This document shows positions 1 to 10,300 of a stretch of 10,300 nt of DNA, piece after piece (positions within the stretch are counted from its first letter, which is position 1; the number at the start of each line of letters is the position of its first letter). Source of the stretch: a virus; the UHGV virus genome UHGV-0365264; one strand, written 5' to 3'. Position numbers and translations under genes: made by a program. Below the pieces are notes generated by a model. It was not told where the DNA came from and ran no database searches. It was given only the letters and a program-made list of their open reading frames with translations.

Positions 1-285
1 TAGTGGTTTACCGCTGGCGCTTTTACCCTGTCCCTGCCGGATGAATAACAGATTGCCATTTTTCACCGACGCAATAGCACCGTACTGGCGCGCCAGCCGC
101 ATCAGAAAACTGCCGTCACTCTCATTGGTCTGGTCTATATGTTCCACGGGTTTATCTGACAGGTCTTTACCCAATGCCATCTTCAGTTTGTGCCGCACAG
201 CTATTTCCTTCACCACTTTCCCGACGGTGGTCTTGTGCCACGACTTTTCACGGCGGGTACAGTAGCTGCACGACTCACCATCGCT
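1..285 (-). pseudogene. D: Fragment of P2 gpD-like tail protein (late control gene D family); N-terminal part missing, C-terminal part continues beyond window start
   Basis: Minus-strand translation reads ...RREKSWHKTTVGKVVKEIAVRHKLKMALGKDLSDKPVEHIDQTNESDGSFLMRLARQYGAIASVKNGNLLFIRQGQGKSASGKPL, which matches the central region of P2 gpD as I recall it (RREESWH...HIDQSQESD..FL.RLA...SVK.G.LLF.R.GQG..ASGK). An in-frame TGA at 286-288 lies 9 codons upstream of the first matching residues, and no gpD N-terminal sequence is seen in any frame. Confidence 0.5.
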
Positions 286-563
286 TCACCGCCTTTTGCG
301 GGAAGCGCCAAAGGATGCAACGGTGGAAGCTCTGCTGGCGCGGCAGCAACCCCCATCATTCCGGCGACAACGGCAGCCAGTGCAGCTGTATTTCTCCGGC
401 TGGTCACGTTTGCCGGGCCGTTAACAATTTCCGGCCCGTTTTCACCGACGATGCCAAACTGCCCGCGCGGGATATAGCCGCCGCTGTCATACATCCCCGC
501 AAAGCCATATCCCCATGACGGAAAATCACCCGATGGCATCATCACTTTACCGTCTGCATTCAT
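210..563 (-). pseudogene. Tail tape measure protein C-terminal fragment (gpT-like remnant)
   Basis: Frame open from 615 to the TGA at 210-212. It contains GYGFAGMYDSGGYIPRGQFGIVGENGPEIVNGPANVTS, a Gly-rich segment with a VGE.GPE-type motif typical of tape measure C-termini. Only about 100 aa are present, overlapping the 3' end of the M-like ORF and the 5' edge of the gpD-like fragment in other frames. Confidence 0.4.
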
Positions 564-954
564 CCGCCATTTCTTCCGCCAGAACGGTCTGCACGTTACG
601 GTTGCCCAGCGGCATCACCCAGCCATGGCGCAGCGCATGACGCCCGATTTCCAGCGCACCGGCATAATCACCGGCGTCGATACGCCACAGCATCACGTAC
701 ATCAGCACGTCATCCTGCTGCGCACCTCCGGCAGCCAGCACGCCCTCCGCCCAGGCGGCATACTTCGGCAGAAGCTCCACCTTGATTGCCGCCTTTTTCA
801 CGGTGGACTGGATACCCTTAAGGCGGCGGCGGTCTTCTGCCAGCTGCAGCAGCATCAGGTCATAGCCGGACGCATGGCGAACACTGCCGCCCTCCCGGGC
901 GGCCTGTTCGGCCTGAATGCGCAGGCGGTGCTGCCGTGCGGGACTCAGGCTCAT
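547..954 (-). CDS. M: Terminase small (endonuclease) subunit, gpM-like; apparently C-terminally truncated (135 aa versus about 247 aa in P2)
   Basis: Position immediately downstream of the capsid gene in O-N-M order. Start is preceded by GAGGAG with a 6-nt spacer. N-terminal region is Arg/Ala-rich like the gpM family. ORF ends at TAA 547-549, where tape-measure-like sequence begins in another frame. Confidence 0.65.
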   Translation of the reverse strand: MSLSPARQHRLRIQAEQAAREGGSVRHASGYDLMLLQLAEDRRRLKGIQSTVKKAAIKVELLPKYAAWAEGVLAAGGAQQDDVLMYVMLWRIDAGDYAGALEIGRHALRHGWVMPLGNRNVQTVLAEEMADECRR

Positions 955-957
955 GCG

Positions 958-2052
958 TTACTCCTCAGTTTCTGTTTCGGCGGGTTCTTCCACAGGCGCA
1001 GACTGCACCGCAGCTGGCTCGCTGAAGTCACCGATAGTGATGTTTTCGACCAAGGCCGCGCAGCGGTAGTCTTCAATCACATACGCTTCGTTGACGGATT
1101 CGAAGTTCTCAATCCGGTCACGTTTCGGGTTGTCGATAACAGAACGGCGGCGGGTGTCCTCCTGCCAGTAGATGGACAGGTTATCCAGACGGGTGATCAG
1201 CAGGGCATTAGCCGGGAAGAACGGCGCACGCACCGCCTGCAGGCCGCCCATGCGTTTCTGGCTGATAATCAGATCGGCGGCGATTTTCTCGCTGTTTTCC
1301 TGCTCTTTGTTAACCAGCGGGAAATACTTATCGGACAGCAACTCGCGGCTGCAGATAACAACCAGCTCATCATCATCCTGATACACCACGTCGATCAGCT
1401 CGTTAACCGCATCCATCACCACGGCGTCCAGGTTGGTATAGTCGCCGCCCTTGCCCACCTTTACCGCGCCTGCGGTGGTGGTGCCGTCCTGGGTGGTGCT
1501 GCCCATAACGTGGTCCGGCGCGTCTTCGCGGATTTTCTGCAGCCAGCCCTTATTCACGTCCTGCAGCAGCGGGTTTTCTGCGCGGTTGGAGGTTTTGGCG
1601 CGCTTCACTCCGTTAAAGCCGATCATAATGCGGTCCAGCGCCTGGCGCTTGACAATGGCGTTACGGATACGCACCTGGAAGTCCTGAAATTTCGCCCACA
1701 GGTCCAGCTTTGCGTAGGTCAGCACCGTGTCAAAGTTGGTCTGTTCGCATTTATATTCCACGTCCTCCATCAGCATCGGATCGGTAGGTTCGCGCTCTTT
1801 GGTGGTGGTGTCGGTGGTTCCGGCAATGGTGGAGCCAACGCCCAGGCCAAGCAACTGGCCGGACTGTTCCGCAACCGGCGTGATGTTAATCAGCGTCAGA
1901 AAAGCGGCGGACTGCTGGATCTGGTCTTCCAGCGTCTGCTGCACGGACGGGTCCACGGTGAACTTGCTGGAAAGTTCTTCCACTTCCACGTTGTTCAGGC
2001 GTGCCAGCTGCTGCAGGTAGGCGTTAAAGGCAAAGCGGGTATTCTTTTTCAT
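958..2052 (-). CDS. N: Major capsid protein, P2 gpN family
   Basis: 364-aa ORF. N-terminus MKKNTRFAFNAYLQQLARLNN...KFTVDPSVQQTLE and internal KGGDYTNLDAVVMDA, VICSRELLSDKYFPLVNKEQENSEKIAADLIISQKRMG and LITRLDNLSIYWQ are colinear with P2 gpN as recalled. AGGAG lies upstream of the ATG. Confidence 0.93.
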   Translation of the reverse strand: MKKNTRFAFNAYLQQLARLNNVEVEELSSKFTVDPSVQQTLEDQIQQSAAFLTLINITPVAEQSGQLLGLGVGSTIAGTTDTTTKEREPTDPMLMEDVEYKCEQTNFDTVLTYAKLDLWAKFQDFQVRIRNAIVKRQALDRIMIGFNGVKRAKTSNRAENPLLQDVNKGWLQKIREDAPDHVMGSTTQDGTTTAGAVKVGKGGDYTNLDAVVMDAVNELIDVVYQDDDELVVICSRELLSDKYFPLVNKEQENSEKIAADLIISQKRMGGLQAVRAPFFPANALLITRLDNLSIYWQEDTRRRSVIDNPKRDRIENFESVNEAYVIEDYRCAALVENITIGDFSEPAAVQSAPVEEPAETETEE

Positions 2053-2068
2053 CGGGTTTTATGCTCCT

Positions 2069-2902
2069 TCAGCAATTGGTCAGGGTGCCTGCCGGTGCGT
2101 CACCGCCCGGCGCGCGCTGGCGGTAATCTTTACGACTGTCTTCACGGCTCAGCTGCTGGTGAAGCTCGGCAAAGGCGGCCTGCTGCTCCTGCAGCGAGGA
2201 TTCAAGCTCAGAAATGCGCGCGTCCTGGTCGGACAGGGATTTATCAGTGCGCTCGCTCAGGTTCTGCTGCTCGGTGGCGACCAGCTCAACGGCTTTGTGC
2301 ACGTCTGAGAAACGCGCATCATCGGTCTGCTCTTTTTTGGTGAACAGGGCGGTGACGCGGGCAAAGAGGGACGGCTTTTCGTCCTGGGTTTCTTCCAGTT
2401 CGATCAGCGTTTCTTCGGCGGCGGTAAACAGGTTTTCAGGACTCTGCTTGCGGTTTGCCAGCGGGTTGTGCGCGGCGCTGGCGCTGAAGGTCAGCATCTC
2501 AGTGCCCAGGCTCGCCGGATCGTCAGTGGCGGCCAGGCCCACAAGGTAGGCTTTGCCGGTGTCGGCAAACTTCGGGCTGACTTCCATGGAGGTGAAAAGC
2601 TTCTGGCCTTTCTTGACCAGTTCAACCAGTGCGCTGGTCGGCTCCACGTCGGCATACAGCGCCATCTTGCCCTTCAGGGGGCCATCCTGAATTTCTTCAG
2701 CAACCAGCGCCGTCACCCTGCCGTAGCGGTTGAAGGTGCTTTCCGGCAGATATGACTTGATGTGCTCAAGGTTAATCAGGGCGGTGTAGACCTCCGGGTT
2801 GTAGCTGGCCGCCATCTGCTCCAGCCATTCGCGCTGGATTTCGCGTCCGTCGGTGGTGGCACCTTCCACCCCAATGCGGAAACGCTTTGTTTTCACTGTC
2901 AT
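2069..2902 (-). CDS. O: Capsid scaffolding protein, P2 gpO family
   Basis: 277-aa ORF directly upstream of N on the same strand, with an acidic, coiled-coil-rich C-terminal half. GGAG lies 8 nt upstream of the ATG. Position is that of P2 O, transcribed divergently from P. Confidence 0.88.
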   Translation of the reverse strand: MTVKTKRFRIGVEGATTDGREIQREWLEQMAASYNPEVYTALINLEHIKSYLPESTFNRYGRVTALVAEEIQDGPLKGKMALYADVEPTSALVELVKKGQKLFTSMEVSPKFADTGKAYLVGLAATDDPASLGTEMLTFSASAAHNPLANRKQSPENLFTAAEETLIELEETQDEKPSLFARVTALFTKKEQTDDARFSDVHKAVELVATEQQNLSERTDKSLSDQDARISELESSLQEQQAAFAELHQQLSREDSRKDYRQRAPGGDAPAGTLTNC

Positions 2903-3041
2903 GCCGTGCTCCGTTAGAAATTACTTACTTGAGCCTTATGTTTGCGGTGATGGGGGAGTGAAACAACGCGCGGCGCTTGTACGGTCAGCCACACAAACCG
3001 CAGCCGGGGAAAGCCGCGGGGCAAGGCCGTATGTTTGGGCC
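2903..3041. promoter_or_regulatory. Divergent late promoter region between O and P, with a TGT-N12-ACA element (2978-2995) of the Ogr/Delta activator type
   Basis: 139-bp intergenic region between divergent O and P starts. tgtacggtcagccacaca at 2978-2995 fits TGT-N12-ACA. Its centre is about 85 bp upstream of the O start codon, compatible with a -55 activator site for leftward transcription. Confidence 0.35.
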
Positions 3042-4808
3042 ATGAACACGACAATGACCCCCGCAGACCTCGATCCCCGTCGGCAGGCCATGCTGCTGTA
3101 CTTTCAGGGATACCGCGTAGCCCGCATTGCAGAAATGCTGGGCGAGAAAGTTGCAACCGTTCACAGCTGGAAGAAGCGCGACAAGTGGGGCGAGTATGGG
3201 CCGCTGGATCAGATGCAGCTCACCACCGCCGCGCGCTACTGCCAGCTCATTATGAAGGAGCAGAAAGAAGGGAAAGACTTCAAGGAAATTGACCTGCTGG
3301 CGCGCCAGTCAGAGCGCCACGCCCGGATCGGTAAATTTAACGATGGCGGCAACGAGGCAGATTTAAATCCGAAGGTTGCCAACCGCAACAAAGGCCCGCG
3401 CCGCAAGCCCGAAAAGAACGTTTTTACCGACGAACAGATCGAGAAGCTGCAGGAGGTTTTCCACGGCTCGATGTTCGCCTACCAGCGCCACTGGTACGAG
3501 GCAGGCAACCGCCACCGTATCCGCAACTTGCTCAAATCGCGCCAGATCGGGGCGACCTTCTTTTTTGCCCGGGAGGCGCTGATTGACGCCATCACCACCG
3601 GCCGCAACCAGATTTTTCTTTCAGCCAGCAAGGCACAGGCGCACGTCTTCAAGCAGTACATCATCGACTTTGCAAAAGAGGTGGATGTGGAGCTGAAGGG
3701 CGACCCGATGACGCTCAGCAACGGCGCGTGCCTGTACTTCCTCGGCACCAACGCCCGCACGGCGCAGAGCTACCACGGCAACCTGTACCTGGATGAATAT
3801 TTCTGGATACCGAAATTCCAGGAGCTGCGCAAGGTGGCCTCCGGCATGGCCATTCACAAGAAATGGCGGCAGACCTACTTCTCCACGCCGTCCAGCCTGA
3901 CCCACAGCGCCTATCCGTTCTGGTCCGGCGCCCTGTTCAACCGGGGCCGCGCCAAAGCGGACAAGGTGGATATTGACCTGACCCACGGCAATCTGGCCCC
4001 GGGCCTGCTTTGCCCGGACGGCCAGTACCGCCAGATCGTCACCGTGGAGGATGCGGTGCGCGGCGGCTGTAACCTGTTCGATCTGGATCAGCTGCGGATG
4101 GAGTACAGCCCGGACGAATACCAGAACCTGCTGATGTGCGAATTCATTGACGATCTGGCGTCAGTGTTCCCGCTGAGCGAGCTGCAGGCGTGCATGGTGG
4201 ACAGCTGGGAAGTCTGGTCAGATTTTCAGGCGCTGGCGCTGCGCCCGTTTGGCTGGCGTGAAGTCTGGATCGGCTATGACCCGGCGAAAGGTACGCAGAA
4301 CGGCGACAGCGCCGGATGCGTGGTGGTGGCACCACCCACAGTGCCGGGCGGCAAGTTCCGCATTCTGGAGCGGCACCAGTGGCGCGGGATGGACTTCCGC
4401 GCCCAGGCTGACGCCATTAAAAAGCTGACCCAGCAATATAACGTGACCTATATCGGCATCGACTCGACCGGCGTCGGCCACGGCGTCTATGAGAACGTTA
4501 AGGCGTTCTTCCCTGCCGTGCGCGAATTCGTTTACAACCCCAACGTTAAAAACGCCCTGGTGCTCAAGGCATACGACATTATCAGCCACCGGCGCCTGGA
4601 GTTTGACGCCGGGCACACCGACATTGCGCAGTCCTTTATGGCAATCCGCCGCACCACTACCGCCAGCGGCAACCGCCCCACCTACGAAGCCAGCCGCAGC
4701 GAAGAAGCCAGCCATGCAGATCTGGCCTGGGCAACGATGCACGCACTGTTTAACGAACCGCTGCAGGGCGAAGCCGCCAATACCAGCAACATTGTGGAGA
4801 TTTTTTGA
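3042..4808 (+). CDS. P: Terminase large (ATPase) subunit, P2 gpP family
   Basis: Long ORF whose N-terminus MNTTMTPADLDPRRQAMLLYFQGYRVARIAEMLGE is gpP-like. It has Walker-type and nuclease-like segments and is the first gene of a P-Q operon as in P2. Start chosen at ATG 3042 rather than the upstream in-frame ATG 2853, which would overlap O; no strong SD, so the start is uncertain. Confidence 0.88.
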   Translation: MNTTMTPADLDPRRQAMLLYFQGYRVARIAEMLGEKVATVHSWKKRDKWGEYGPLDQMQLTTAARYCQLIMKEQKEGKDFKEIDLLARQSERHARIGKFNDGGNEADLNPKVANRNKGPRRKPEKNVFTDEQIEKLQEVFHGSMFAYQRHWYEAGNRHRIRNLLKSRQIGATFFFAREALIDAITTGRNQIFLSASKAQAHVFKQYIIDFAKEVDVELKGDPMTLSNGACLYFLGTNARTAQSYHGNLYLDEYFWIPKFQELRKVASGMAIHKKWRQTYFSTPSSLTHSAYPFWSGALFNRGRAKADKVDIDLTHGNLAPGLLCPDGQYRQIVTVEDAVRGGCNLFDLDQLRMEYSPDEYQNLLMCEFIDDLASVFPLSELQACMVDSWEVWSDFQALALRPFGWREVWIGYDPAKGTQNGDSAGCVVVAPPTVPGGKFRILERHQWRGMDFRAQADAIKKLTQQYNVTYIGIDSTGVGHGVYENVKAFFPAVREFVYNPNVKNALVLKAYDIISHRRLEFDAGHTDIAQSFMAIRRTTTASGNRPTYEASRSEEASHADLAWATMHALFNEPLQGEAANTSNIVEIF

Positions 4809-5833
4809 TGGGCAAGAGGAATAAAAACCGCGCTGCAGCTAAACAGAACGTTCAACAGAGCAGCGGCATATCTGCAGAAGCATTCAGCTTTGGCGACCCG
4901 ATCCCGGTACTGGACCGCCGGGAATTGCTGGATTATGTGGAGTGCGTGCAGATGGACCGCTGGTATGAGCCGCCGGTGAGTTTTGACGGGCTGGCGCGCA
5001 CCTACCGCGCCGCCGTGCATCACAGCTCACCGATTGCCGTTAAGCGTGACATTCTCAGCAGCACCTATATCCCGCACCGCCTGCTCAGCCAGCAGGCTTT
5101 TTCCCGTTTCGTTCAGGACTATCTGGTATTCGGCAATGCCTACCTTGAGAAACGCACCAACCGGCTCGGTGGCGTTCTCTCGCTGGAGCCCGCCCTGGCG
5201 AAATATACCCGCCGCGGCGTTGACCTGGACACTTACTGGTTTGTGCAGTACGGATTCACCACGCAGCCCTACGAATTCACGCCGGGAAGCATTTTCCATC
5301 TTCTTGAACCTGATATTAACCAGGAAATATACGGGCTGCCCGGCTACCTCTCAGCCATTCCGTCCGCGCTGCTCAACGAGTCCGCCACGCTGTTTCGCCG
5401 CAAATATTATATTAACGGCAGCCATGCGGGCTTTATCATGTACATGACCGACGCCGCGCAGAACCAGGAGGACGTAAACAACATCCGCCAGGCCATGAAA
5501 AGCGCCAAGGGCCCGGGCAACTTCCGCAACCTGTTCATGTACTCTCCCAACGGCAAAAAAGACGGGATCCAGATCATCCCGCTGTCAGAGGTGGCGGCGA
5601 AAGATGAATTTCTGAATATCAAGAATGTGAGCCGCGATGACATGATGGCTGCGCACCGCGTACCGCCGCAGATGATGGGGATTATGCCAAATAATGTCGG
5701 GGGTTTTGGGGATGTAGAAAAAGCGAGTAAAGTTTTTGTTCGAAATGAGCTCTATCCATTGCAGAAAAAACTAAGAGAGCTTAACACTTGGCTTGGAGAA
5801 GAAATCATTAAGTTTGACGAATACATTTTATAA
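4808..5833 (+). CDS. Q: Portal protein, P2 gpQ family
   Basis: N-terminus MGKRNKNRAAAKQNVQQSSGISAEAFSFGDPIPVLDRRELLDYVEC and later segments (FHLLEPDINQEIYGLPGYLSA, ATLFRRKYYINGSHAGFIMY, IIPLSEVAAKDEF, KVFVRNELYPLQ) are colinear with P2 gpQ as recalled. ATG 4808 overlaps the P stop TGA 4806-4808. Confidence 0.9.
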   Translation: MGKRNKNRAAAKQNVQQSSGISAEAFSFGDPIPVLDRRELLDYVECVQMDRWYEPPVSFDGLARTYRAAVHHSSPIAVKRDILSSTYIPHRLLSQQAFSRFVQDYLVFGNAYLEKRTNRLGGVLSLEPALAKYTRRGVDLDTYWFVQYGFTTQPYEFTPGSIFHLLEPDINQEIYGLPGYLSAIPSALLNESATLFRRKYYINGSHAGFIMYMTDAAQNQEDVNNIRQAMKSAKGPGNFRNLFMYSPNGKKDGIQIIPLSEVAAKDEFLNIKNVSRDDMMAAHRVPPQMMGIMPNNVGGFGDVEKASKVFVRNELYPLQKKLRELNTWLGEEIIKFDEYIL

Positions 5834-5839
5834 AAGAAT

Positions 5840-5863
5840 AGGCCGCAGAAAGCGGCCTTTATT
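5840..5863. terminator. Bidirectional rho-independent terminator between convergent Q and the 454-aa cargo gene
   Basis: aggccgc-agaaa-gcggcct stem-loop followed by TTTATT on the plus strand and a T-rich tract on the minus strand. It lies between the Q stop (5833) and the cargo gene stop (5878). Confidence 0.55.
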
Positions 5864-5877
5864 ATTCCCCAAAAGTA

Positions 5878-7242
5878 TTATTCTTCTTCATCATGTACAA
5901 CTTTTTTTTCGGGAATATCTTCATTTATCTTCTTCGTTCTTGTCAGTCCCGCCTTTCCCAGAACAGCATCCATTTTATCACCACCTTTTTCCACCAAACT
6001 TTTGAAACCATCAGAGGATAACATTTCCATTATTGGAGATGAATGAGCGGTTTCCTCAACGAATCTCAACGGTGGCTCTTCAAGTCGAGTAAGTGCATTG
6101 CCAAAAAGACGCTGTGAGAAATCAGAGTCTAATTGCATCGCTTCTCTACGATAACCTTCATAGGCTTTAGAAACGCTAGCTTTGAATTCATAATCTTCGG
6201 CCAATCTGAATCGTTGACCAATTTGCTTAGTAGCTAACCAAGCAAACCAAAGCGGGGCACCTACACTGAGAATCGATAAGATAAGCTGTATGGTTAGTTT
6301 GATACCAGAGGCATTAGGATTCGATAAGTATGCCTCCAGAGCATGCAATCGAGTATAACCAACAACGGCTCCAGCCCCAAGGGCTGCGATTAAGCCTGCT
6401 ACCCATAGCCTGATACTGGCGTTAAGTTTTCTTGCTTTATCTTCAAAAGCTCCAGCTAAACCTTTAGATGTCGTTGTTCTAAAGGCCTCCTCACATTTAT
6501 CGATATATCCTTGAGCTTCAACCTTAAGTTCAGCCAAATAATCGTTAGCTTCTTTCGCTACATTTTTATGTAATTGTGCAATCGTATTTTTTATGTCATT
6601 TAACTCTTTACCATCAAGCTTTGCCTGTTCTAATCTTTCATTGATTGAATCAGCATTTTTCTCTGAAAGTTCATTTAATTGATTAATTTCCTCATTTGTC
6701 TCCCTAAGAGATTTTAAGGTTGTGGGTAAACTCTCTGCAGCATCATAAGCTTCATTGATTACATTTATCTTGCTATCGAGGTCACCACTTTTCTCCTCAA
6801 TAGTTTGAAGATTAGATTGATACAAACCTAGTCTGTTTATTATTTTTTTTGGAAGAAGTTCTTTGTTATTTAAAACTTCAAACGAAAATAGCTCATTTAT
6901 TTCCGTACTTATATAAAGCATAGAAACAAAATACGATGCAATGGCTGGCCCCGATACATTAGTATTGCTGTGGTTTAAATGGTTTAAATTGGGTTGTGCT
7001 TTATCTAACGAATAAATTATAGAATCTATAATTTCAACGTCATGTTCAGAAGGTTCAAACTTAGTCATCTTGCCTATCTTTTCAGATAGCATTTTCGGGA
7101 AAGATACTAAATCTTCTGAATGTAAGAAGGGATATTGATAATTGTTAACATCAATAAAATCTTGCTGTGGAAAACTTATTGCACTAATAGTGGTATGTAA
7201 ATTATCCAGTTTTTCTTTTAGTTGGTTCAACTTTTCATTCAT
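5878..7242 (-). CDS. Hypothetical cargo protein, 454 aa: coiled-coil N-terminal and central region, two predicted transmembrane helices, about 100-aa acidic C-terminal tail
   Basis: Long ORF in markedly AT-rich DNA. The two hydrophobic helices are LWVAGLIAALGAGAVVGY and IKLTIQLILSILSVGAPLWFAWLA. Heptad-like Lys/Glu/Leu/Asn-rich stretches precede them. A possible promoter (TTGTAA, 18-nt spacer, TACAGT) lies upstream. Confidence 0.7.
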   Translation of the reverse strand: MNEKLNQLKEKLDNLHTTISAISFPQQDFIDVNNYQYPFLHSEDLVSFPKMLSEKIGKMTKFEPSEHDVEIIDSIIYSLDKAQPNLNHLNHSNTNVSGPAIASYFVSMLYISTEINELFSFEVLNNKELLPKKIINRLGLYQSNLQTIEEKSGDLDSKINVINEAYDAAESLPTTLKSLRETNEEINQLNELSEKNADSINERLEQAKLDGKELNDIKNTIAQLHKNVAKEANDYLAELKVEAQGYIDKCEEAFRTTTSKGLAGAFEDKARKLNASIRLWVAGLIAALGAGAVVGYTRLHALEAYLSNPNASGIKLTIQLILSILSVGAPLWFAWLATKQIGQRFRLAEDYEFKASVSKAYEGYRREAMQLDSDFSQRLFGNALTRLEEPPLRFVEETAHSSPIMEMLSSDGFKSLVEKGGDKMDAVLGKAGLTRTKKINEDIPEKKVVHDEEE

Positions 7243-7325
7243 GGCTTCGCCTTTGATTACTGTATGTAAAAGATAAACGTCCTTACAATATCACACTCAT
7301 GACAACTATCAGAGGGTAAGCGCGC

Positions 7326-7347
7326 GCTCGTATCCCCGCCACGCCTG
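7326..7347 (-). other. Candidate cos (cohesive end) site, P2-like
   Basis: The reverse complement of 7327-7345 is GGCGTGGCGGGGATACGAG, matching the recalled P2/P4 cohesive end GGCGAGGCGGGGAAAGCAC at 14 of 19 positions. It sits in a GC-rich island inside AT-rich cargo, in the A-to-Q interval where P2 cos lies. Confidence 0.3.
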
Positions 7348-7394
7348 CCCGCTTTATGTAGTGGTTTTCATGCAGGTGCATGATCTACGCAAAA

Positions 7395-7414
7395 GCCCGC
7401 CAGTTCTGGCGGGC
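7395..7414 (-). terminator. GC-rich hairpin followed by a T-run on the minus strand (terminator-like)
   Basis: gcccgcca-gttc-tggcgggc stem-loop. On the minus strand it is followed by TTTTGCG. Confidence 0.4.
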
Positions 7415-7687
7415 CTTAGCAAAAACGATCCTCAAACGATCATGCAATCTCATGCAGCATAGACATGCACAGACGAGTAAAGCGAATCGGACCTTACGCA
7501 AGGTGAACTCCTCAGCGGGCATAATCAGTATGTCGGAAGATCTCTAAAAATAAATAATTCGGTTAACAGGTATGCTTACAAAAGCATATATTTGATTAAA
7601 AATCATGTAAGGGGGAGGATCTCAAACTGAATCGCCACGGGTTTTACAAATTTCGATAGTCTCTCTAACGTTTCGGCTGAGGTCAAA

Positions 7688-8113
7688 ATGAAAAGCTTTT
7701 ACGTATTAATTTTAATTCTGGTTGCAAGCTTTGTTAGCGTCCCAGTTCAGGCGGTAACAGCTAAAAACTATGAGAAAGGAACTAAAGCTCAACAGAAATC
7801 AATATCTTACCTTTCATGTGCATTCTATGGCAGTAGCACACAATTAGATCCTAGCTACACGGAGCAAGTACCTACAGCCGATATCAAGATATTACAGAAA
7901 GCAGCTTACCACGCTTACAACGATGCGCTCTCATACTTTGGCTATGAGGAACCAGATCACGAACAACGCATAATTGATTATGCTGAATTTGTGGCGTCGC
8001 AAGAAGCTGTGTTATGGGATAAGCCGGGAATGAATGGAAAGCAGGTAACACTAATTGCTCGTTCTCTCTACAATGAGAGTAACTGTAACTTGTTACTGGA
8101 CTCAATTAAGTAG
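7688..8113 (+). CDS. Hypothetical secreted or periplasmic protein, 141 aa, with N-terminal signal peptide
   Basis: MKSFYVLILILVASFVSVPVQA|VTA has the n-h-c organisation of a signal peptide with an AxA-type cleavage site. GAGG lies 7 nt upstream of the ATG. AT-rich codon usage like the neighbouring cargo gene. Two Cys in the mature part. Confidence 0.7.
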   Translation: MKSFYVLILILVASFVSVPVQAVTAKNYEKGTKAQQKSISYLSCAFYGSSTQLDPSYTEQVPTADIKILQKAAYHAYNDALSYFGYEEPDHEQRIIDYAEFVASQEAVLWDKPGMNGKQVTLIARSLYNESNCNLLLDSIK

Positions 8114-8272
8114 GAAAAAGATGGTATTTTGCCCGTAGTTTCAACCTTAATCTCCGAACCTGTCGCAGAACGGGCGTTCACTCATCAAATAAACGCCACA
8201 CCTAACGCCTCACTGTACTCGTTGTTCAACCTTGCTGACGCCAGAACCAAGTTCAGACGCCAGCAACTTTTC

Positions 8273-8506
8273 TTAATGCAGCCAGCTGTCGTCTTCCCAC
8301 ACCTTCTGCATAATCTTCATCACTTGTTTTCTTTCTTCGTCCAGTTGCAGTCCGGTCAGTTCCACACCGTTAGAGCTACCTTTGCGGATGCGAATTACCA
8401 TTTTGGGATACAGGGGGCGCAGATTGCGGTAAAGCTCGGATTCAAGGGCGTCCAGGGTAGACTGGCTAATCTTCTGCTCTTTATCGATCATTATTTCAAT
8501 GCGCAT
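8273..8506 (-). CDS. DinI-family protein (DNA-damage-inducible protein I-like; possible Tum C-terminal-type module)
   Basis: MRIEIMIDKEQKISQSTLDALESELYRNLRPLYPKMVIRIRKGSSNGVELTGLQLDEERKQVMKIMQKVWEDDSWLH aligns along its length with E. coli DinI as recalled (MRIEVTIAK...ALAGELSRR...QETWESADDW). GAGGTG RBS upstream. Start taken at internal ATG 8504-8506 rather than the track start at 8578. Confidence 0.8.
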   Translation of the reverse strand: MRIEIMIDKEQKISQSTLDALESELYRNLRPLYPKMVIRIRKGSSNGVELTGLQLDEERKQVMKIMQKVWEDDSWLH

Positions 8507-8516
8507 AAAGGTCACC

Positions 8517-8705
8517 TCAGCTGATGACATCCATTGAGCGGTTGTATTCGTGGGTTCTGATTTTTGCCATGAGTTCATCAGTCAATTCAGAAACCCACTG
8601 CAGAGCCAGCCCCTTCTCTTCATCACTACACTCACTAGCCGCTACAAGCTTAAGAAAAAAATCAATGCGCTGGAGCTTCAAAGACTCCAAAAAATAGTCC
8701 TGCAT
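8517..8705 (-). CDS. Small hypothetical protein (62 aa), first gene of the LexA-box operon; possible antirepressor (Tum N-terminal-like) module
   Basis: AGGAGG lies 5 nt upstream of the ATG. Its TGA stop overlaps the RBS of the DinI-like gene, suggesting translational coupling. Sits immediately downstream of the LexA box. Confidence 0.6.
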   Translation of the reverse strand: MQDYFLESLKLQRIDFFLKLVAASECSDEEKGLALQWVSELTDELMAKIRTHEYNRSMDVIS

Positions 8706-8745
8706 CTTTCCTCCTATGACACCAAAGTAATACTGTATATATAAC

Positions 8746-8765
8746 CACTGTTTATATTTACAGTA
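8746..8765 (-). promoter_or_regulatory. LexA (SOS) box, with a second degenerate box overlapping at 8733-8748, in the promoter of the minus-strand operon
   Basis: cACTGTttatatttACAGTA is a perfect CTGT-N8-ACAG core with consensus-like flanks. The adjacent tACTGTatatataaCCAC has one good half-site. Candidate -35 TTTACA and a TA-rich -10 on the minus strand overlap or abut the boxes. Confidence 0.65.
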
Positions 8766-8857
8766 TATAATAATCTTACTGATGTAAAACGTTTTTTTAC
8801 GTTCATCAGCCTGATATGCCTGGTATTATTAAGAGCACGAATTGTTAACCCGCGTAA

Positions 8858-10300
8858 TTAATACAGGTTCCGCCACTTATCATCTTCCTGCAAACGCTGG
8901 TTCCGATAGAAGATACGCAGGCCTGCTCCTGACGGAATACTGCCGCCGCGAAGGAGTAAATCGACCTCTTTCTCGCTGCCATCAAATCCTCTGGACTTCA
9001 GTTCATAGACGAGCTGCTGTCGCTGATGGTCTGTAATTCGCTGTTTGTAGTCTTTACGCCGTTTCGGTTTCACCAGGCGTAACCTTGCAGCCAGTTCCCG
9101 GCGCTCTTTTTTGCTCATACTGTGCAAGTAATCGTGCAACTCCTTGTCATCCATGCGGGTAATGTCCGTTCTGGTGTCCCCATCAGCTGATTTATCTTTC
9201 TCCTGTTGGTTCAAATTTTCAGCAAGGGGACAGTTATTGCCACGAGTCCAAGGGGACAGTTATTGCCACGAGTCCAAGGGGCGCAAGCGCCCTGGTCGGC
9301 TGCCGCCTCCTGAACGTCAACGGCCTTACGAACCATTTTCCACTTCACTACATGAGTGCAGATCTTGCCCTCTGCAATGGGTGACCAGATGCCATAAATA
9401 CGAATACCGTGATCACCATAGGCGGTCGGCTCTTCGTTGATTTCATAAGCGGTTCTGATCAAGTGATATTTGCGGGGAACCAACACGCCGCCCTGCTTCA
9501 TAATGTAGGTGGCAAAACAGCCAGCATCAGCAGCAGCCAGAATGGCATCAAGACGCGGATCATCCAGTACCGGCGCACCTGCTTTTTTGTCACCCTGCTG
9601 CCTTGCCGCCTGACCAGCCAGCAATCGCAGTTCACGGTAAGCCTGACGCCCCGGAATGCCAAAGAAGCGGAATTGCTGAACACGATGCAGAGACGCCCAG
9701 GCATTAACGTATTCAGCGTTATCACGCAGGGATTTACCCGTTTCCTTGCTGATCTCGCCAGCCAGACCACGCCCGTCAATGTTCTTACTGATGTATTTCG
9801 CGATGTAGCTTGTCGGCGTTCCTTTGCGCGGGTTAATCAGCTCAGACTTAAAGCGTGGCCCCGTGTTATTGCCCAGTTCCTCGCGGTCTTCACGGATGGC
9901 AAACTTACGCAGTAATGCAGTGATGGCGCGGCGGTCTTTTTTACGCATGAAGCACATGAGATGCCAGTGCACAGTACCGTCATGATGCGGCTCAGCCACC
10001 CGCACGCCATACCACCGCAATCCGGCTTTGTGCATCGCCTTACGAAATGCAGCAAACATGCCGACCAGATAATCACTGCTTTGTCTTACCGTCGCATTTG
10101 TCCAGGTCGGGTTTGGTCTGCCGTTATTGAGCGTGGAATGGAAACGTGACGGACAGGTGATGGTGTAGAAAACGGCGCAGTCACCGCGCATTTCCGCGAT
10201 AAGCTCCAGACCTTTAACGCAGGCCATCATCTCATTGCGGCGATGTGCCGGGTTGCTGCTGCTGGCGTTTACCACATCTTCCATATCCAGCGTGTCTCCG
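8858..10300 (-). pseudogene. A: Rolling-circle replication initiator, P2 gpA family, split by a +26-bp tandem duplication; 5' end lies beyond the window
   Basis: All three RCR motifs are present: FYTITCP (motif 1), TVHWHLMCF (HUH) and SYIAKYISK (paired catalytic Tyr). The reading frame ends at TGA 9211-9213 just after the duplicated 26-mer. Removing one 26-bp copy joins this frame exactly to the downstream 118-codon ORF (8858-9214). Confidence 0.7.
9223..9281. repeat. Tandem direct repeat, 26 bp x 2 plus a 7-bp partial third copy
   Basis: caaggggacagttattgccacgagtc occurs at 9223-9248 and again identically at 9249-9274, followed by caagggg at 9275-9281. Confidence 0.95.

Follow-up and report, generated by a model that had tools for sequence, protein, structure and literature searches.

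The window, by which we mean the whole stretch of 10,300 nucleotides (10.3 kb) that was analysed, is a piece of a P2/186-like (Peduoviridae) E. coli prophage. On its minus strand, immediately following replication gene A in the same orientation, lies an operon of two small genes, one for a 62-aa protein and one for a 77-aa DinI-like protein, preceded by two overlapping LexA boxes (Table 1). The Phage_GPA open reading frame ends at 8858, with the start of the operon close by, near 8790. The same succession, from gene A to an operon of this kind, is common to 186, PSP3, Fels-2 and six further phages.

Table 1. Positions of the operon, its control elements and the neighbouring genes in the window.
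Feature	Position	Strand	Remark
Capsid gene	958-2052	minus	
Scaffold gene	2069-2902	minus	
Terminase gene	2853-4808	plus	
Portal gene	4805-5833	plus	
Two cargo genes	between portal gene and tum-like operon in the gene list		
15-bp stem-loop	8232-8266	minus	7 nt past the tumB stop codon; main feature of the minimum-free-energy fold
tumB-like gene, 77-aa DinI-family protein	8273-8506	minus	Pfam DinI match
Shine-Dalgarno GAGGTG of the DinI-like gene	8513-8518	minus	read from the sequence
tumA-like gene, 62-aa antirepressor candidate	8517-8705	minus	homology to the N-terminal domain of 186 Tum
Shine-Dalgarno AGGAGG of the 62-aa gene	8710-8715	minus	read from the sequence; 4 nt before the ATG
Proximal degenerate LexA box CAGTGGTTATATATACAGTA	8731-8750	read 8750-8731	good right half-site, degenerate left half-site
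Distal LexA (SOS) box TACTGTAAATATAAACAGTG	8746-8765	read 8765-8746 on the minus strand	near-consensus
Putative -10 hexamer TACTGT	8760-8765	minus	first six bases of the distal LexA box; by analogy with 186 p95
Alternative -10 TATACT	8762-8767	minus	15-nt spacer
Putative -35 hexamer TTTACA	8783-8788	minus	5/6 positions as in TTGACA; 17 nt upstream of TACTGT
Replication gene A, 3' part	8858-10300	minus	Pfam Phage_GPA, 2.8e-83

Of the cargo genes, one is convergent and codes for a secreted protein of 141 aa, and the other codes for a membrane and coiled-coil protein of 454 aa. Positions 5840-8900 of the window are found with 100% identity in the chromosome of E. coli NCTC 13148, and this region, whole or in part, is matched in 1285 of 5426 complete E. 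coli genomes. The NCTC 13148 prophage as a whole is 99-100% identical to window positions 863-10300, except for an IS1 insertion in its portal gene. Further afield, the ~700 bases surrounding the operon share 90-97% identity with many Escherichia and Klebsiella phage records, and the module itself is common in Klebsiella and Salmonella phage records. No Rfam family was found in the window.

A preliminary description of this DNA, made from its letters, had proposed a minus-strand operon of two genes, the first of them with a strong ribosome-binding site, and both the layout and the AGGAGG motif in front of the 62-aa gene agree with it. The Shine-Dalgarno sequence of the DinI-like gene overlaps the TGA stop codon (8517-8519) of the 62-aa gene; the cistrons do not overlap each other, the intercistronic gap being 10 nt, and translational coupling between them is plausible. 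For the DinI-like gene the start codon is the ATG at 8506, which gives 77 aa, as annotated in Fels-2, PSP3 and RefSeq. An upstream ATG at 8578, from which a mechanical list of open reading frames gave 101 aa, was rejected. Beyond the second gene, the stem-loop lacks a U tract and was not called by a terminator scan; it is possibly a weak terminator or an RNA-stability element, and the corresponding site in 186 is occupied by the partial terminator t95a.

The pattern CTGT-N8-ACAG occurs a single time in the window, at 8748-8763, where 0.09 occurrences would be expected by chance, and the 20-mer of the distal box has 3 mismatches to the LexA consensus, a fit that none of 200 shuffled sequences equalled. 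The proximal box overlaps it by 5 nt, the bases CAGTG being common to both. The two boxes were compared by a symmetrised heterology-type score, computed with a matrix of our own from 17 chromosomal E. coli LexA sites, with the colicin sites excluded. On this scale, whose values are relative only and are not the published heterology index (an earlier matrix did not reproduce the published indices), the distal box scores 4.7 and the proximal box 7.5; no other 20-mer in the window does better than 15.9, and 200 shuffles yielded 7.6 at best. By the same matrix both boxes fall inside the range of the training sites (2.1-11.8), and the distal box lies in the range of the recA box. The claim of a consensus-quality LexA box with an overlapping degenerate one, made in the preliminary description, is thus upheld for both boxes.

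The operator is shared with relatives to different extents. The distal box is kept in Fels-2, 813R9, SopEphi and Yersinia phage MLG42, all of which have the double box as the window does, while ESSI2-like phages, PSP3 and 186 have one stronger LexA box; it is the proximal box that aligns with the single box of 186 and PSP3. In nine out of nine phages compared, representing at least five Peduoviridae genera, the start codon of the Tum-N homologue has a LexA box in front of it, at a distance of 38-67 nt. By its sequence, the operator in the window is a dual overlapping SOS box of the colicin type, a small addition to a known module.

A scan of 8100-8900 for strict sigma-70 consensus promoters and terminators called nothing, and the promoter hexamers are weak. 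They were assigned by comparison with p95, a promoter annotated in 186. In p95, TTCACA is followed after 18 nt by TACTGT inside the LexA site; the geometry in the window is alike, with TTTACA, 17 nt and TACTGT. By this analogy we infer that TACTGT serves as the -10 hexamer of a p95-like promoter. A -35-type hexamer 17-18 nt before the LexA box recurs in the nine phages, where it reads TTTACA or TTCACA except in PSP3 (TTCCCA), and the remaining promoter sequence is not conserved.

The second gene is the easier of the two to place. Its product matches Pfam DinI (PF06183) at 81.5 bits against a cutoff of 24.2 (5e-23), over profile positions 1-63 of 63, which agrees with the DinI-family assignment that had been made for it from its translation. 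With E. coli DinI (PDB 1ghh) it shares 29% identity in a full-length alignment, with PSP3 TumB it shares 77%, and it is identical to Fels-2 STM2726.1 at 76 of 77 positions. The statement, in the preliminary description, that the C-terminal part of 186 Tum is DinI-like proved correct: the protein aligns with Tum residues 71-145 without gaps, at 40% identity (E 2e-23), and this segment of Tum is annotated in the 186 record as a separate, GTG-initiated truncated Tum that 'modulates SOS induction'. Against the NCBIfam DinI equivalog (NF007893), it reaches 41.3 bits and stays below the cutoff of 111. The far lower equivalog score and the 29% identity with DinI indicate, as judged from sequence comparison, that the protein is a DinI-like paralogue of the phage TumB type and not an orthologue of chromosomal DinI itself. 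Compared with DinI, the protein has a less acidic C-terminal helix, in which K64 and K68 take the place of E, although function is not readable from such residues.

The first gene required more sensitive methods. Its 62-aa product is identical to Fels-2 STM2728 at 61 of 62 positions, and it has no match in Pfam, NCBIfam or PADLOC; in PHROGs it meets only families of unknown function and belongs to PHROG 698. Pairwise BLASTP found no match between it and 186 Tum or PSP3 TumA, nor between PSP3 TumA and 186 Tum, so that profiles were needed for the homology with the N-terminal part of Tum (Tum-N). The family of the 62-aa protein comprises 484 clusters at 90% identity, with 66 representatives at 50%, across Enterobacterales, and a family HMM was built from 33 diverse members. 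This HMM matches 186 Tum at 35 bits (E 8e-10) over about residues 4-48, nearly ungapped, and all 120 of 120 relatives of the N-terminal 70 residues of Tum at 31-43 bits, whereas 1210 shuffled controls gave at most 7.5 bits. By hhalign, the 62-aa family and 186 Tum-N match with a probability of 96.8% (E 2.6e-10, 41 ungapped columns), and 186 Tum-N and PSP3 TumA with a probability of 90% (E 1.5e-6). The direct comparison of the 62-aa family with PSP3 TumA is weak (probability 12%, E 0.0025), with the same register as the other two comparisons, so that the 62-aa family is connected to TumA by way of 186 Tum-N. When all three types are aligned together, the alignment extends over ~45 residues essentially without gaps, with M1, C26 and A34 invariant. 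Taken together with the profile scores, the 62-aa protein is demonstrably, at the level of sequence, a homologue of the Tum N-domain.

AlphaFold models the 62-aa protein as a two-helix hairpin (H2-23 and H28-61; mean pLDDT 89.6), in which the invariant cysteine lies in the turn. A sequence search of the PDB found no match at E up to 10, and Foldseek of the hairpin against BFVD gave none at E <= 0.001, a comparison that is uninformative for so simple a fold. The homology also brings a gain in annotation, as neither Pfam nor NCBIfam has a family for the small antirepressor and RefSeq lists it as a 'hypothetical protein'.

Sequence features, homologies, synteny and the conservation of the LexA site are what is known of the operon here, and from them it is very probably the SOS operon of a Fels-2-type (P2/186-like) prophage, in which 186 tum takes the split form of tumA and tumB. 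The preliminary description had suggested a Tum-type module in which Tum appears as two cistrons, and this suggestion holds by the alignment to the C-terminal part of Tum, the profile match to Tum-N, the position after gene A and the 98-99% identity with the Fels-2 pair. Of the alignments to Tum and DinI that it had named as a check, the one for the DinI-like protein succeeded pairwise, and the one for the 62-aa protein failed pairwise and succeeded by profile. The module is real but ordinary, being already known from Fels-2, PSP3 and 186.

LexA binding, SOS induction and antagonism of CI would be expected at this operon by analogy with 186, Fels-2 and PSP3. In an undamaged cell, LexA would occupy the double overlapping operator, which covers the -10 region and the transcript start, and would keep the promoter shut. 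After DNA damage, activated RecA would bring about the self-cleavage of LexA, and the promoter would fire. The two-helix 62-aa product would then bind the 186-type CI of the prophage and keep it off its operators without cleaving it, and the lytic promoter would in consequence be de-repressed. The DinI-like product is the counterpart of the C-terminal half of Tum; its most likely role is to modulate either RecA filaments or induction timing, and antirepression can most likely do without it. ESSI2-like phages keep the LexA box and the small Tum-N gene without a DinI gene, which places the essential induction function in the small protein. A mechanism of this kind would explain how a class of P2-like prophages can be SOS-inducible without repressor cleavage.

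The preliminary description had also offered a RecA-modulating moron as an alternative. In its fullest form such a reading would have the DinI-like protein, induced in the SOS response, tune the SOS response of the host, with the 62-aa protein an unrelated leader or accessory product that plays no part in induction. Such a view would suit a downstream protein that is a clear DinI-family member, aligning with E. coli DinI over its full length and carrying the PHROGs family name 'RecA filament binding protein DinI', and it would also suit a module that is intact in a prophage seemingly unable to replicate and a region that is matched, at least in part, in so many complete E. coli genomes. Yet the 62-aa proteins are homologues of the antirepressor half of Tum, the DinI-like protein falls far under the equivalog cutoff, and it is the DinI gene, not the small gene, that ESSI2-like phages do without. 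In the Gifsy phages, furthermore, non-polar dinI deletions are without effect on induction, whereas the small antirepressor is essential (PMC3121763). We therefore regard the proposal as very improbable for the operon as a whole: RecA modulation is not needed to account for the upstream gene, and it may still describe what the DinI-like gene does.

The state of this copy has to be considered as well, as the prophage around the operon is damaged. A perfect tandem duplication of 26 bp (9223-9281) shifts the reading frame of gene A and is absent from the otherwise 99% identical NCTC 13148 copy. The duplicated unit begins where the annotated 186 origin aligns, and the 7-nt repeat CCCCTTG on its flanks suggests that the duplication arose by slippage. 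At the left end of the window, positions 1-862 consist of joined fragments of gpD-like and tape-measure genes, so that this end is rearranged. In the NCTC 13148 prophage, the closest complete genome, the integrase is truncated in addition to the IS1 insertion in the portal gene. The prophage in the window is probably unable to replicate or to form particles, in which case no phage would come of its induction. With a duplication at the predicted origin, a rearranged end and lesions in the nearest relative, one might take the Tum operon for an inert relic in a decaying remnant, transcribed after DNA damage with no further consequence. This is very improbable in our judgement: both open reading frames, both ribosome-binding sites and both LexA boxes are intact, and identical alleles occur in functional phages, among them 813R9, Klebsiella prophages and Fels-2. 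Moreover, a trans-acting antirepressor can act on co-resident prophages, as was shown for Gifsy and Fels-1 (PMC3121763). The intact tum operon in the window could likewise act in trans.

Which repressors the 62-aa protein might reach is a question for the relatives, as the cI gene is not part of the window. In the NCTC 13148 prophage the switch is of the 186 type and comprises CI, an Apl-like gene, CII and Fil; the CI of this prophage is 33% identical to 186 CI over the full length. Among prophages of the NCTC 13148 type, 813R9 and Fels-2, the small antirepressors are 98-100% identical, while the CI proteins share 66-76% identity in the N-terminal DNA-binding domain and only 25-41% in the C-terminal domain. 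Because nearly identical antirepressors are paired with CI proteins that diverge in the C-terminal domain, the 62-aa protein might be an antirepressor of broad specificity, which recognises the conserved N-terminal domain of CI and not the divergent C-terminal one. We put this forward tentatively, as a possibility that we consider rather unlikely, and the same reserve applies to the accompanying idea that the double box may make induction delayed and bimodal. If the broad specificity were true, a single allele, even one from a dead remnant, could trans-induce heteroimmune Fels-2-like or 186-like prophages in the same cell. Modest leads on the timing of induction and on crosstalk between prophages come from the double operator and from the contrast of a conserved antirepressor with diverging CI proteins.

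Among the known systems, the tum locus of Fels-2 (STM2728 and STM2726.1) is the closest, with gene A, the LexA double box, the 62-aa gene and the 77-aa DinI-like gene in the same order. Its promoter and operator are nearly identical to those of the window, a single base being different, in the proximal box. The two loci differ in their hosts (Salmonella for Fels-2 and E. coli for the window), in the cargo downstream, where Fels-2 has an orf97-like gene and the window the genes for the secreted and the membrane and coiled-coil proteins, and in that the copy in the window sits in a defective prophage. The CI proteins of Fels-2 and of the closest E. coli relative share only 40% identity. Bunny, Liu and Roth (2002) reportedly traced the lethal effect of lexA null mutations in Salmonella to the tum homologue of Fels-2.

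In 186, as in the window, the p95-tum operon follows gene A, its LexA box overlaps the -10 hexamer TACTGT, and an N-terminal antirepressor module is followed by a C-terminal DinI-like module; the DinI-like part of Tum is also made separately, from an internal GTG start. The differences are that 186 Tum is one polypeptide of 146 aa, whereas in the window it is split by a stop codon and the short gap, that 186 has a single, stronger LexA box where the window has two overlapping ones, that the N-terminal modules are only ~20% identical, and that orf97 follows tum in 186. Tum of 186 is a LexA-controlled factor that inhibits CI by sequestration, and SOS induction of p95 transcription has been reported (PMC7708051); Tum binds CI and blocks its binding to the operators (Shearwin 1998, as cited in PMC3121763 and PMC7708051). 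Compared with 186, the double operator of the window would be expected to give tighter repression and later induction.

PSP3 has the same split layout of two genes, tumA and tumB, under one LexA box, and TumA is a different sequence type of small protein from the 62-aa protein of the window. The PSP3 record describes tumA as 'similar to 5' end 186 tum; UV induction of prophage', and names the second gene tumB. The split was already described by Lemire, Figueroa-Bossi and Bossi (2011, PMC3121763), who noted that Tum resembles a fusion of an antirepressor with DinI, that in Fels-2 and PSP3 tum is split in two by a stop codon, with the antirepressor upstream and the DinI homologue downstream, and that in PSP3 the antirepressor activity resides in the upstream gene. 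Their statement on the split tum rests on Bunny, Liu and Roth (2002) and on a personal communication from G. E. Christie, and the evidence for CI antagonism by the split forms of Fels-2 and PSP3 is genetic or a personal communication (cited in PMC3121763). The dinI-gfoA and dinI-gftA operons of the Gifsy phages likewise combine a LexA-controlled DinI homologue with a small, non-cleaving antirepressor (PMC3121763), but in reversed order, with dinI first, in lambdoid phages and with antirepressor and repressor families unrelated to Tum and 186 CI.

The operator, finally, also has a counterpart outside the phages. The double SOS box of a pore-forming colicin gene on plasmid pF2_18C_Col agrees with the 35-nt double box of the window at 31 of 35 positions, and about a thousand plasmid records, mostly of small mobilizable plasmids, match the double-box part of the query. 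The genes of the colicin operon are unrelated to the LexA-controlled genes of the window. Transfer of a whole colicin promoter cassette was rejected: beyond the boxes there is no similarity, and the two promoters are built differently, with the colicin boxes lying downstream of the -10 hexamer (TTGACA, 17 nt, TAATTT, 3 nt, box), whereas in the window the distal box supplies the -10 hexamer. For these two reasons we read the similarity, which is one of sequence, as pointing to a common constraint and not to a common cassette. On the dual SOS boxes of colicin genes, two LexA dimers are bound, repression is very tight and no basal expression is detectable (PMC2994835). A double SOS box of this colicin type might give delayed, bimodal induction in the lineage of the window, unlike in the single-box lineages of 186 and PSP3.

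The prophage in the window is, as judged from its sequence, a remnant. Its left end (window 1-862) is rearranged with respect to relatives, with pieces of a gpD-like gene and of the tape-measure gene abutting the terminase small-subunit region directly. This join therefore leaves out the late genes, among them those for tail and lysis, that separate the tape-measure gene from the small-terminase region. The closest complete genome, that of E. coli NCTC 13148, carries an IS1 inside its portal gene (L006, 11151-11848), where the alignment blocks overlap by 9 bp at the junction. This IS1 is missing from the window, which therefore represents a different, closely related prophage copy.

The replication gene A is frameshifted by a perfect 26-bp tandem duplication, present in 2.3 copies (CAAGGGGACAGTTATTGCCACGAGTC), which the 99% identical copy in NCTC 13148 lacks. 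Read in the sense of the gene, the 26-bp unit begins at a point that aligns with the annotated origin nick region of 186 and P2, ccctctcg|gagttctgtcaataactgt. Because a 7-nt direct repeat, CCCCTTG, flanks the duplication, the sequence suggests slippage at the origin as its source.

Features of the window, with the matches and families assigned to them
Feature	Window position	Strand	Remark
gpD-like gene match	1-259		vs NCTC 13148 prophage
Tape-measure gene match	252-566		vs NCTC 13148 prophage
454-aa protein	5878-7242	-	PHROG 34659, function unknown
141-aa protein	7688-8113	+	PHROG 7437, function unknown
15-bp stem-loop	8232-8266	-	7 nt past tumB stop codon
26-bp tandem duplication	9223-9281	-	in gene A

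The CI repressors (L006, E. coli NCTC 13148, 20464-21033; L002, 35-631; L013, 2692-3324) were compared among prophages whose 62-aa antirepressors, homologous to the N-terminal domain of 186 Tum (Tum-N), are 98-100% identical. Their N-terminal domains share 66-76% identity, and their C-terminal domains only 25-41%.

The portal gene is separated from the DinI-like (tumB-like) gene by two cargo genes. The 454-aa product, judged by eye, resembles an extended coiled coil with two hydrophobic, transmembrane-like segments after it, and its PADLOC matches are only weak and of coiled-coil type (LmuB, LeoBC and ZorA); the 141-aa product begins with a hydrophobic, signal-peptide-like stretch. Relatives fill this slot with other genes: RE2010 has an AIPR abortive-infection protein there, 813R9 a Hypoth_Ymh protein, and Fels-2 an unnamed 243-aa gene (in 186, orf97). 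The slot thus resembles a hotspot of variable cargo or defence.

The stem-loop that follows the DinI-like gene is without a U tract, and at the equivalent position 186 has the partial terminator t95a. The ESSI2-like phages (L009, 1079-1413; L010, 1082-1368) lack a DinI-like gene after their Tum-N homologue, but they retain this homologue and a single strong LexA box after gene A, and the genes that come next lie on the opposite strand.
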